Positions 10,274-10,631 of a DNA stretch of 19,784 nt are shown one piece after another. The stretch is from a virus (Duplodnaviria > Heunggongvirae > Uroviricota > Caudoviricetes). The position numbers were made by a program, and so were the translations under genes. The notes under the pieces are model-generated. The model was not told the origin of the DNA and did not search any database. It saw only the letters and a list, made by a program, of their open reading frames with translations. Every line of letters begins with the position of its first letter. Position 1 is the first letter of the stretch. The stretch covers positions 1 to 19,784 of the IMG/VR virus record IMGVR_UViG_2690316049_000007. One strand, 5' to 3'.

Positions 10274-10631
10274 ACTGAGTTTAACCAAACAGGAGGTGCC
10301 GTAATGGTGCACTAACGCGGTTAGACCGCAGCCGAAAGGCAATGCAGCAGTAATGATGCTGCCCCGAGTCGCGTAATGGCGAGCAGGTTTAGCAGACCGA
10401 TGTGAGGGTAAATAAGGGAACATGCTCCGGAAAGGCAGCGCGAATGCCAGACGCGCACCGGTTATCAGCGGCTAATAAGCGACAGAGACTCAAGGGCATG
10501 AGCGCGCTCACTGCGAGAGTGTGAGTCAAAGAGTAGTTGGCTTTGGGGTGACGTGAAGTGCAGCTGCACGACGGCAACCGGAAGATAAGCGCCCGGCGCG
10601 TCACCGCCAAAGTCAATCATCGGAGGTCAAC

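Follow-up and report, generated by a model that had tools for sequence, protein, structure and literature searches.

The 358 nt that separate nutL from the start codon of N in the window (the whole stretch of tailed-phage DNA analysed, 19,784 nt long) are, judging from alignments with related phages, a composite of two parts: an ordinary HK620-type N leader (10527-10631) and, ahead of it, a 251-nt cassette (10276-10526). Sequence comparison likewise indicates that the cassette is one member of a conserved, uncatalogued plus-strand RNA family that moves as a module among mobile elements. Together with a cis-acting leader role for this RNA, the composite leader and the RNA family form an explanation whose probability as a whole we place a little below even.

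All features given here lie on the plus strand. A consensus scan identifies a pL-like promoter (TTGACC, 17-nt spacer, TAAATT; 10158-10186) that is homologous to the annotated pL/OL region of HK620. It is followed by nutL (10232-10273), read from the sequence and almost identical to the annotated nutL of HK620, with boxA GGCTCTTTAACA at 10232-10243 and the boxB hairpin UCCCGC-CGAAAU-GCGGGA at 10256-10273. The N gene, taken from the ORF list, spans 10622-10931 and consists of a Shine-Dalgarno (SD) sequence GGAGG (10622-10626) and an ORF of 99 aa (10632-10931) with an arginine-rich N terminus; N as annotated in HK620 and mEp213 is a homologue of the ORF, which matches Pfam N_peptide weakly, under the family cut-off. 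From the end of the boxB region (10275) to the ATG at 10632 there are 356 nt, in keeping with the gap of about 360 nt in the original prediction, which also correctly described the segment as GC-rich (53-59% G+C over 10225-10675, versus 32-44% upstream in the pL region and 35-39% downstream of N). Its GC skew of +0.12 to +0.21 makes the segment G-rich and C-poor, the opposite of a Rho loading site. The statement that it contains no plus-strand ORF of any size proved wrong, as plus-strand ORFs of 40 aa (GTG start, 10402-10524), 29 aa and 25 aa are present; none of the three is conserved.

The borders of the cassette are evident from pairwise alignment with HK620, which lacks it at an otherwise almost identical site: the flanks are near-identical and the extra segment, TGAGTTTAACC...GTGTGAGT, is precisely 251 nt long. 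BLAST splits the query at position 253/254. The empty HK620 site reads GGGAAC/CAAAGAG (slash at the junction) with no duplicated target, and the cassette ends share only a 5-nt direct repeat, TGAGT, with no inverted repeats. A transposable element of the MITE or IS type was rejected on this alignment, given the lack of both terminal inverted repeats and target-site duplication. A second such pair of phages is HK225 (without the module) and mEp237 (with it), which share their Q, promoter and terminator region. Since HK620 versus this phage and HK225 versus mEp237 are natural minus/plus pairs, clear test constructs are at hand.

The remaining 105 nt (10527-10631) are 97-99% identical to the N leader of phages without the cassette (HK620, mEpX2, ECP1, HK630, N7 and others), and 428 of 5426 complete E. 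coli genomes carry this HK620-type leader. Its dominant feature is a long hairpin at 10536-10617 (inverted repeats I1 and I2; MFE -44.5 kcal/mol, z = -3.64, none of 200 shuffles equally stable) with a basal stem of ~20 bp interrupted by one bulge, and an apical branch carrying the perfect 12-nt palindrome GTGCAGCTGCAC, found at 10558-10569 as originally reported. In lambda, RNase III cuts a hairpin in the matching position and thereby lifts repression of N translation. Because this ~20-bp, near-continuous predicted duplex dominates the leader between nutL and the N SD, and ends 5 nt ahead of that SD, it is a plausible lambda-like RNase III-type candidate site, and would exert the usual control of this type over N translation downstream of the cassette. 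The likeness to the lambda N leader, a long near-perfect hairpin between nutL and the N SD, is one of layout, and covers the last 105 nt alone, not the 251-nt cassette.

This hairpin is also the sole segment that is exceptional by folding energy, with z-scores of -1.45 for 10225-10660 and -0.43 for the cassette alone. The earlier description of a structured leader therefore holds insofar as functional RNA structure is indicated, but not in the sense that the whole segment is more stable than its shuffles, and the structure in 10276-10526 rests on covariation among homologues rather than on the folding energy of a single sequence. Nor does the idea of one expanded processing structure for N survive, the leader being composite, its last 105 nt normal and its cassette not specific to N. 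That the whole 358 nt form a single RNase III or translational-control structure serving N might be argued from the stable hairpin just before the N ribosome-binding site, and from the occurrence of the element between nutL and N both here and in at least seven other loci. We give this reading almost no credence, as the hairpin belongs to the 105-nt leader, which functions in HK620-type phages with no cassette present, and the cassette is mostly found far from N genes, a distribution that already contradicts it.

The family comprises ~100 distinct copies, 61-99% identical, in Enterobacterales lambdoid phages, prophages and conjugative plasmids. A covariance model places the module of the window at 10283-10529 (240 bits) and scores 145-260 bits on full copies, with one full copy per locus. 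Named phage carriers include mEp213, mEp237, phiKO2, Hafnia yong1, Klebsiella RothC/D and Stx2c phages, while the plasmid carriers are conjugative plasmids of plant- and animal-associated Enterobacterales; among complete E. coli genomes the module is present in 112 of 5426, and E. coli 55989 has a copy at NC_011748.1:2699516-2699742. A pattern scan of IMG/VR gave at least 120 contigs. In a genome collection a degenerate pattern gave mostly chance matches, with six real ones among the matches listed, all from Enterobacterales. Rfam 15 (4227 models) has no gathering-level match in the window, no relevant match over 10050-10750 at E<=10, and no match at E<=1 on the module of 11 further diverse copies; a weak, sub-threshold STnc100 match occurs elsewhere in one locus (L071), off the module. 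No paper containing the invariant 16-mer was found in a literature search by its exact sequence, and a keyword search of the literature found no description of the family.

Evidence for the fold comes from an alignment of 98 distinct sequences, in which 98.1% of the cells at paired positions are indeed paired. Compensatory change is seen in 29 of the 51 pairs, and both sides of a pair have changed in 274 cells. Slid controls gave 30-40% paired and at most 46 double-changed cells, and the observed values were reached in none of 500 shuffles. Within a 245-nt element, the fold covers ~215 nt and has 13 helices including a pseudoknot, with a closing helix and two multi-helix junctions. Paired cells hold far more G-U than A-C (201 versus 23), which fixes the plus strand as the one read as RNA. 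Of the 93 unpaired columns in the core, 34 are invariant to 97% or more while the median pairwise identity is 78%, and these invariant unpaired bases suggest specific recognition rather than mere stability.

The long-range closing helix P1, predicted by RNAalifold, pairs CCGC (10326-10329) with GCGG (10468-10471). A rival local hairpin would pair the same CCGC with GCGG at 10317-10320, and covariation cannot choose between the two because P1 is nearly invariant (98% of cells paired). Enclosed by P1 are the variable hairpin P2 (GCC-GAAA-GGC, 10331-10340; 3 of 3 pairs compensatory, missing in about a quarter of copies), the hairpin P3 (GCAGCA-GUAAUGA-UGCUGC, 10344-10362; 6 of 6 compensatory) and a junction helix of CCC (10363-10365) with GGG (10406-10408) around P4 and P5, in which the pair 10365-10406 is C-G in 68, U-A in 29 and U-G in one of the 98 sequences. 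In P4 (UCGC-GUAAUG-GCGA, 10369-10382) three of four pairs are compensatory, one of them being G-C 62, U-A 22, C-G 6 and A-U 3 times. P5 (CAGG, 10384-10387, with CCGAUG, 10397-10402; again 3 of 4 compensatory) is CCUG/CGGG in most copies, and its loop tolerates insertions of up to ~25 nt. The pseudoknot, supported by covariation, joins AGCA of the P5 loop (10391-10394) to UGCU (10423-10426), with all three counted pairs compensatory and 99.5% of cells paired; copies bearing insertions keep it with other letters (CAUACC/GGUAUG, GCGC/GCGC). P6 (CCGG/CCGG, 10427-10430 with 10458-10461; 2 of 4 compensatory) surrounds P7 (GCGCG/CGCGC, 10438-10442 with 10452-10456; 5 of 5), whose loop bears a conserved GCCAGA.

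The 3' domain (10479-10525) is the most conserved part, being kept even in the divergent phiKO2 and Yersinia copies, and its ACUCAAGGGCAUGAGCG is nearly invariant. It consists of the almost invariant P8 (10479-10481 with 10503-10505), the mostly invariant P9 (CUCA-AGGGCA-UGAG, 10489-10502; one compensatory pair) and P10 (CUCAC-UGCGAGAGU-GUGAG, 10507-10525; two). The arms of P10 (10507-10511 and 10521-10525) are the CTCAC...GTGAG inverted repeat already noticed in the single sequence, and the helix covaries in homologues. Two further contacts, between the P3 loop and J6 (AUGA/UUAU) and a kissing pair between the P7 and P9 loops (GCC/GGC), fit the data but involve invariant bases and remain unproven, and a mutual-information scan for further tertiary pairs returned mostly subfamily signal. 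A longer P1, predicted for this copy with GUUAG/CUAAU and CGC/GCG, was discarded as not conserved, by eye on the aligned rows. Mimicry of, or pairing with, rRNA or an operon tRNA was also rejected; the best candidate was 13 nt, CUCAAGGGCAUGA with 16S 834-846, and shuffled controls did as well.

The same alignment bears on the reading of the cassette as selfish or neutral mobile DNA, or as a minus-strand gene for a small protein, without RNA function. The cassette-like distribution would suit either, and stop-free runs on the minus strand are long (median 68 codons), with hypothetical proteins annotated there in RothC and some RefSeq records. A protein-coding gene on either strand was rejected, however, as no reading frame is conserved: the core has indels of 1-2 nt (43 deletion runs, 40 insertion runs), the module lacks 3-nt periodicity (p = 0.24-0.88), and the longest plus-strand stop-free run is as short as 24 codons. 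Mobile DNA of the selfish kind fits poorly with the missing terminal inverted repeats and target duplication, neutrality is contradicted by conservation of paired and unpaired positions alike at 61-99% identity, and compensatory change in 29 pairs with a plus-strand-specific G-U bias speaks against the whole group of explanations, to which we assign a negligible probability.

Upstream of the fold lies a ribosome-binding site with a minute reading frame. In the window an SD sequence GGAGG (10292-10296) is found 7 nt 5' of the start of a mini-ORF, ATG GTG CAC TAA (Met-Val-His-stop, 10304-10315), and a second in-frame stop, TAG, follows at 10322-10324. At the aligned position, 66 of 81 distinct copies have ATG and six have TTG. 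In the 66 with ATG, the mini-ORF is 1-6 codons long (three codons in 46), an SD-like motif occurs 6-9 nt upstream in 54 and within 16 nt in 59, and the distance from ATG to P1 is fixed at 21-22 nt in 63. The SD and mini-ORF are kept in plasmid copies as well. The encoded peptides are variable (M, MKQ, MKH, MVH and others).

Such an arrangement, with an SD, a start and an in-frame stop upstream of a structure, recalls uORF attenuators, and leaders with tiny uORFs have been proposed earlier, for example the fthC motif (PMC11109978). The cassette could accordingly be a sensor-type leader: an aptamer resembling that of a riboswitch, or an attenuator in which the mini-ORF gauges the capacity for translation initiation. 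It would gate N, late and transfer-gene checkpoints through the hairpin or terminator 3' of the module. Its aptamer-like fold with conserved junctions and a pseudoknot, the conserved SD, AUG and stop abutting the first helix, the two competing pairings of CCGC, and the hairpin or terminator recognisable 3' of the module by a simple flank scan in 56 of 90 distinct instances are all compatible with sensing. We nevertheless regard it as improbable. The downstream genes are unrelated and fall in no single pathway, as would be expected of a riboswitch; the peptides, as short as Met alone, leave no room for sensing codons; and polymerase modified by N or Q would ignore a switch based on a terminator. 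An intrinsic terminator, moreover, lies ~4-14 nt 3' of the module in 15 of 90 distinct instances, and complementarity between terminator arm and module was seen in only six of 15 closely related cases, so a conserved terminator/antiterminator switch was rejected.

All copies whose flanking genes were read lie in the sense orientation inside a long operon, usually at its head. In phages the module occurs after nutL and before N-like genes, after Q and a terminator, or between lysis and packaging genes; in plasmids it heads type IV pilus or type IV secretion system (T4SS) operons. Three MPF_I plasmids carry it 57-71 nt ahead of their first type IVB pilus gene, and a fourth, in which that gene is unannotated, has it at the corresponding place; in a VirB-type T4SS operon it stands at the head, right after a promoter-like site. 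Where the flank scan recognised an element 3' of the module, this was a terminator, a hairpin of the form CAUUACA-stem-GAUAAUG, or a long GCUUUGGGG hairpin. The downstream neighbours are N-like genes, pilL-like genes, tRNAs, small phage ORFs or a terminator. Linkage to tRNA was rejected, with tRNA genes after the module in just two of 36 loci scanned (L002 and L046); the sequence of the tRNA-like element is also present in locus L177. A conserved protein partner at the pilus-operon copies was likewise rejected, since the upstream genes are unrelated between plasmids; one MPF_I plasmid has a NusG-like gene upstream of the module. As no partner protein encoded by the mobile elements was found to be shared across contexts, the RNA may act on machinery of the host, for example the ribosome or RNA polymerase.

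Given this position and anatomy, we tentatively propose, at somewhat less than even probability, that the cassette acts in cis, as a leader element ensuring that the downstream operon is expressed. A ribosome would load on the mini-ORF and, as the start codon is fixed 21-22 nt from the closing helix, would sit directly against the folded domain. Ribosome and fold might then jointly act as a roadblock or platform, protecting the long nascent transcript from Rho loading or translocation and from 5'-end-dependent attack by RNase E; alternatively, the cassette RNA may modify the elongation complex, as the put, EAR and conAn2 RNAs do. By either route distal genes would be expressed, and in the window the role of the element would be to ensure that N and the pL operon are expressed early. 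Several observations weigh against this proposal. The phage contexts already carry the dedicated antiterminator proteins N and Q, which would make an RNA antiterminator redundant there, and an ORF of 1-6 codons cannot keep a ribosome travelling behind the polymerase. The put and EAR RNAs lack a mini-ORF, and homology to put is not indicated: the covariance model has no match in the whole HK022 genome at E<=1, and HK022 records are absent from the matches listed and the organism tallies of two phage searches. The choice between P1 and the local GCGG/CCGC hairpin, by which ribosome occupancy would be linked to folding, involves invariant bases, with covariation supporting neither form. Where the module stands between lysis and packaging genes, no promoter is near, and the fold is more complex and more heavily conserved than a simple roadblock or stabiliser would need.

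A different account of the same features is that of a stand-alone, trans-acting RNA, a moron-like passenger transcribed with lytic or transfer operons, perhaps trimmed by RNase or ended at a downstream terminator. It would be directed at a conserved host target, for instance a host factor or defence system for which it would serve as sponge or decoy, or at the ribosome, and the mini-ORF would dock the RNA on ribosomes or stabilise its 5' end. A sharp-bordered cassette in many unrelated sites, its many invariant unpaired bases and the lack of a linked protein gene common to its contexts would all be expected of such an RNA. The module is, in addition, often bracketed by terminators T1 and T2, read-through from the constitutive late promoter could give a discrete RNA of ~300 nt, and phage sRNAs (PasD, STnc100) are known from the late-leader region. 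An own promoter is not seen in most contexts, though, a terminator follows in only the 15 of 90 instances mentioned, and the sense orientation, mostly less than ~100 nt from the next gene in the contexts read, is typical of leaders; we consider a trans-acting RNA unlikely, if a serious contender. The early suggestion that the segment may encode a small RNA came nearer the truth than N processing did, but the element, a pseudoknotted fold of 245 nt that comes with a ribosome-binding site and mini-ORF, is unlike the typical base-pairing sRNA.

Scattered intergenic positions in phages are places where small ribozymes often occur. The module shares such positions, without association to any gene, and has a compact pseudoknot and invariant unpaired bases, so that a self-cleaving or catalytic RNA that processes the polycistronic transcript at the module junctions deserves mention. 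It has no similarity to any Rfam ribozyme family, however, exceeds all small self-cleaving classes in size (215-245 nt) and shows no cleavage site in the sequence data, and we hold catalysis to be very improbable.

Whatever its function, an RNA of 245 nt, folded into about a dozen covarying helices with a pseudoknot, has stood unannotated in the heavily studied immunity and N-leader DNA of lambdoid phages. One shared RNA part at the head of pL, late, pilus and T4SS operons links gene expression in phages and plasmids; a covariance model for it is now supplied, and annotations of hypothetical proteins across the module can be corrected. Should the RNA favour read-through or stability, it would offer a compact, host-independent means of expressing long operons, and if it is a sensor, decoy or catalyst it would be a new class of RNA. 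We would go further only speculatively, and think it rather unlikely that it represents a new Gram-negative leader-RNA class, in which a ribosome-docking pseudoknot gives resistance to Rho or terminators, or else a new aptamer or ribozyme class at lytic and transfer checkpoints. The ribosome-docking version, if true, would provide long phage and conjugation operons with an RNA counterpart of RfaH/ops, N/nut and Q.

Among described RNAs, GOLLD and ROOL are covariation-supported, complex prophage RNAs that sometimes lie beside tRNA genes and have no linked protein (PMC5737381). They resemble the cassette as large, phage-associated structured RNAs to which no function has been assigned, but are 2-3 times larger, occur in other phyla, lack a mini-ORF and form RNA-only multimers, and neither model matched the module in the Rfam search. 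StxS, PasD/STnc100 and AgvB are likewise non-coding RNAs, located downstream of Q in lambdoid prophages, but these are short base-pairing sRNAs, whereas the module is globular rather than of the seed-and-terminator type and has no match to an Rfam model for them.

Closer in placement are put (HK022), EAR (Bacillus eps operon) and conAn2, structured sense RNAs acting in cis near the start of, or inside, long phage or conjugative operons, often upstream of terminators. The conAn2 regions, of 260-600 bp, head pLS20-type conjugation operons (PMC8191782). These RNAs differ from the cassette in having no ribosome-binding site or mini-ORF, and conAn2 in requiring a protein partner; antitermination by the cassette is moreover putative, and its phage contexts have N or Q already.

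The ribosome-binding site itself has parallels of another kind. The STAB-SD of cryIIIA, the ermC leader and obstacles to RNase E scanning also combine a ribosome-binding site that serves no gene, near a 5' end, with an adjacent stable structure, and the first two stabilise through a bound or stalled ribosome. They are short and simple, in contrast to the complex, sequence-conserved tertiary fold of the cassette, which also occurs in mid-operon. The bar minigenes of lambda, transcribed from pL, similarly consist of a strong SD and an ORF of one to a few codons, but have no conserved fold attached, and we know of no demonstration that selection maintains them. In the cassette, by comparison, the position of the mini-ORF is conserved across ~100 copies, where it abuts a 215-nt structure.

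The window carries a plus-strand lambdoid immunity region in which a cI-type repressor gene (9416-10066, with HTH and peptidase S24 domains) and its terminator (10068-10081) are followed by a pL-like promoter (10158-10186), nutL (10232-10273) and an N gene (10632-10931); the homologous positions in phage HK620 are annotated as pL, OL1-3, nutL and N. The original prediction described 10274-10631 as an unusually long, GC-rich and structured N leader. Length and composition bear this out: the boxB region ends at 10275 and the N start codon follows after another 356 nt, with G+C at 53-59% compared with 32-44% for the upstream pL region and 35-39% past N. 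The palindrome GTGCAGCTGCAC (10558-10569) and the CTCAC/GTGAG inverted repeat are also present as described. The stretch is not devoid of plus-strand ORFs 'of any size', since small ones exist (the longest 40 aa, with a GTG start), nor is it unusually stable as a whole given its composition (z = -1.45; z = -0.43 for segment 10276-10526 alone). We regard the observation as partly confirmed and the interpretation built on it as partly supported.

The object of interest is not the N leader itself, but a widespread, uncatalogued RNA module inserted in it. In BLAST against phages and E. coli genomes the 358-nt query breaks in two at its position 253/254. The final 105 nt (10527-10631) constitute an ordinary N leader of a type already known, with 97-99% identity to the N leaders of HK620, mEpX2, ECP1, HK630, N7 and others, and are present in 428 of 5426 complete E. 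coli genomes; the preceding ~250 nt are much rarer among the records matched and turn up elsewhere. Pairwise alignment with HK620 gives nearly identical flanks and an exact extra segment, 10276-10526, between ...GCGGGAAC and CAAAGAGTAGTTGGCTTTGGGG.... A single N-specific structure, as first proposed for the whole leader, is very improbable. The same 5 nt, TGAGT, occur at both ends of this 251-nt cassette (10276-10280 and 10522-10526); this may be chance, and is not a target duplication because the HK620 junction lacks a copy.

Within the ordinary leader, a long hairpin (10536-10617, basal stem of ~20 bp, MFE -44.5 kcal/mol) stops 5 nt short of the N Shine-Dalgarno sequence and is markedly stable (z = -3.64; 0 of 200 shuffles equally stable). 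The lambda N leader contains an RNase III site, and by analogy of layout this hairpin is a candidate site of the same kind. Its basal stem (GCUUUGGGGUG...CACCNCCAAAG) recurs directly 3' of the module in ~20 other loci, including L090 and two loci, L046 (11356-11426) and L177, where it encloses a tRNA-like sequence, in L046 a 71-nt tRNA-Ser(tga) according to ARAGORN. Given this recurrence, the HK620-type hairpin may be related, in degenerate form, to a tRNA-like element travelling with the module. In phage mEp213 a second N gene is preceded by the whole 358 nt at 99.2% identity; the pL operon of this phage holds two N genes (1374-1706 and 2859-3131 of its locus), the first HK244-like and directly after cI, the second HK620-like with module and N leader upstream.

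The module itself is a non-coding RNA read from the plus strand; its pseudoknotted fold is conserved, and so is a mini-ORF with a ribosome-binding site. An alignment of five sequences (the window and copies from Hafnia, Klebsiella, Providencia and one other E. coli phage) revealed a core of ~230 nt in which single-base indels occur and compensatory changes are evident, and a pattern derived from it matched at least 120 stretches in IMG/VR. A covariance model, trained on 24 diverse copies with a structure curated by hand, recovers a single full copy at each locus (145-260 bits), with the window copy scoring 240 bits at 10283-10529. The original prediction had proposed folding of homologs with covariation as a check, and the structure is indeed conserved across 98 distinct sequences: 13 helices comprise 51 pairs with 98.1% of cells paired, compensatory change occurs in 29 of the 51, and both sides have changed in 274 cells. 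Controls slid by 1-3 columns show 30-40% of cells paired and no more than 46 changed on both sides, and none of 500 shuffles attained the observed values. The fold includes a long-range closing helix (P1), a CCC/GGG junction helix (pair 10365-10406 is C-G in 68 sequences, U-A in 29 and U-G in 1) and a pseudoknot in which the P5 loop pairs with 10423-10426; insertion-bearing copies retain this pairing with different letters. Among module pairs G-U far outnumbers A-C (201 versus 23), and the RNA is therefore read from the plus strand. Core identity among copies is 61-99% (median 78%), and 34 of 93 unpaired core columns are at least 97% invariant; conservation is highest in the 3' domain, ACUCAAGGGCAUGAGCG...CCACUGCGAGAGUGUGG, which even the divergent copies of phiKO2 and Yersinia keep. 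A perfect 12-nt palindrome, TGAGCGCGCTCA (10499-10510), spans helices P9, P8 and P10 in the window's subfamily alone; most copies have TGAGCGCGGCCA.

Coding on either strand is excluded by common 1-2-nt indels and the lack of 3-nt periodicity. Minus-strand hypothetical proteins are annotated over the module in RothC (L002, 2416-2752), in L260 (3581-3886) and in some RefSeq E. coli records, and the same indel pattern and absence of codon periodicity suggest that these calls are spurious. That the cassette is non-functional or coding DNA is most improbable, and a ribozyme seems quite unlikely. An Rfam 15 search, likewise proposed as a check, matched no family for the window copy or 11 others, and we found no description of the module in the literature searched.

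A start codon lies at the same aligned position 5' of the fold in 72 of 81 distinct copies (ATG in 66, TTG in 6). Among the 66 ATG copies, a Shine-Dalgarno-like motif occurs 6-9 nt upstream in 54 and within 16 nt in 59; the ORF has 1-6 codons (three in 46, a bare start-stop in nine) and encodes variable peptides, and the ATG stands 21-22 nt from the first strand of P1 in 63. In the window the arrangement (10292-10315, plus strand) reads GGAGG, 7 nt, ATG GTG CAC TAA, and plasmid copies retain this layout. Given the fixed spacing, a ribosome whose P site is occupied by the start codon would abut the base of the fold with its leading edge. Directly past the stop codon, GCGG can pair locally with the CCGC that forms P1, and a ribosome-dependent choice between this hairpin and P1 is possible; covariation is uninformative here because both pairings are invariant.

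Long operons of mobile elements carry the module as a cassette, and wherever neighbouring genes were read it is oriented in sense with them. In the window, Hafnia yong1 and several IMG/VR contigs it lies directly past the nutL boxB, ahead of N-like genes. In RothC, mEp237 and many contigs it lies downstream of Q-type antiterminator genes, directly after the promoter-proximal terminator, often with a second intrinsic terminator ~4-14 nt past it or tRNA genes next. In vB_EcoS-733R5, phiKO2 and many contigs it falls between lysis genes and small ORFs preceding terminase, followed by a conserved, covarying hairpin (CAUUACA-stem-GAUAAUG) or, in phiKO2, by a terminator. Conjugative MPF_I plasmids of Pantoea and Rahnella carry it 57-71 nt upstream of the first type IVB pilus operon gene, in the Rahnella plasmid after a terminator-like hairpin; Pectobacterium pLPa1526 has it at the same position, with a NusG-like gene upstream and an unannotated first pilus gene. 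On a Yersinia plasmid it heads a VirB-type T4SS operon, immediately past a promoter-like site. HK225 shares Q, promoter and terminator with module-bearing phages but lacks the module, as does the N site of HK620; the element is therefore a discrete, exchangeable cassette. At its module-free site (L249, 1440-1475) HK225 still has GCGTTTCTGGAGGTAAC directly after the late-leader terminator, a U-tract plus Shine-Dalgarno-like sequence identical to the module start in related phages, so the exact left border is not placeable in the late-operon context.

All confirmed hosts or sources with a named organism are Enterobacterales (Escherichia, Klebsiella, Citrobacter, Kluyvera, Silvania, Pseudocitrobacter, Enterobacter, Hafnia, Morganella, Providencia, Yersinia, Rahnella, Pantoea and Pectobacterium); Erwinia and Edwardsiella plasmids are further candidates from BLAST matches. 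In E. coli the element occurs in 112 of 5426 complete genomes, with one site, or two at most, in each of them; all are chromosomal and none is annotated as RNA. One subfamily (L009, L052, L069, L073, L078 and L094) has an extra ~400 nt of GC-rich non-coding sequence (GGGTGCGATCCGGTCGGTGAGAGAG...) between the cI-type repressor and the module, conserved among contigs, that may contain further RNA structure. In an IMG/VR prophage contig (L045, 2241-2312, minus strand) two adjacent CRISPR-DR4 model matches (31.3 and 29.7 bits, threshold 35) lie ~1 kb from the module; they may represent a mini CRISPR array or a lone repeat unit.

No protein encoded by phage or plasmid recurs from one context to another, and because no partner encoded by the mobile elements is conserved, we infer that the module works via a host machine. 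The Shine-Dalgarno/AUG points to the ribosome as one such partner, and the position of the module (after nut, after a Q-controlled terminator, at the heads of pilus and T4SS operons, sometimes just upstream of a terminator) suggests that its job is expression of the long downstream operon. On these grounds we tentatively favour a cis-acting leader element. A ribosome would dock against the compact, G-rich fold (GC skew of the fold region +0.12 to +0.21), thereby blocking Rho and 5'-end-dependent decay; alternatively, the RNA might modify the elongation complex in the manner of put, EAR and conAn2 (for conAn2, PMC8191782). Against a cis-acting leader, N and Q already supply antitermination in phage contexts, an ORF of 1-6 codons is unable to follow polymerase, HK022 put is not homologous to the module, and the fold is more elaborate than a roadblock requires. 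A passenger RNA acting in trans is a weaker but real contender. A sensor-type leader is weakened by downstream genes that are unrelated and by the absence of a conserved terminator/antiterminator alternative, and we consider it rather unlikely.

None of the known families tested fits the cassette, and there is an appreciable, if modest, chance that it is something categorically new. In layout it resembles the leader RNAs of long operons, mini-ORF leaders, and those phage-borne structured RNAs that have no assigned function.
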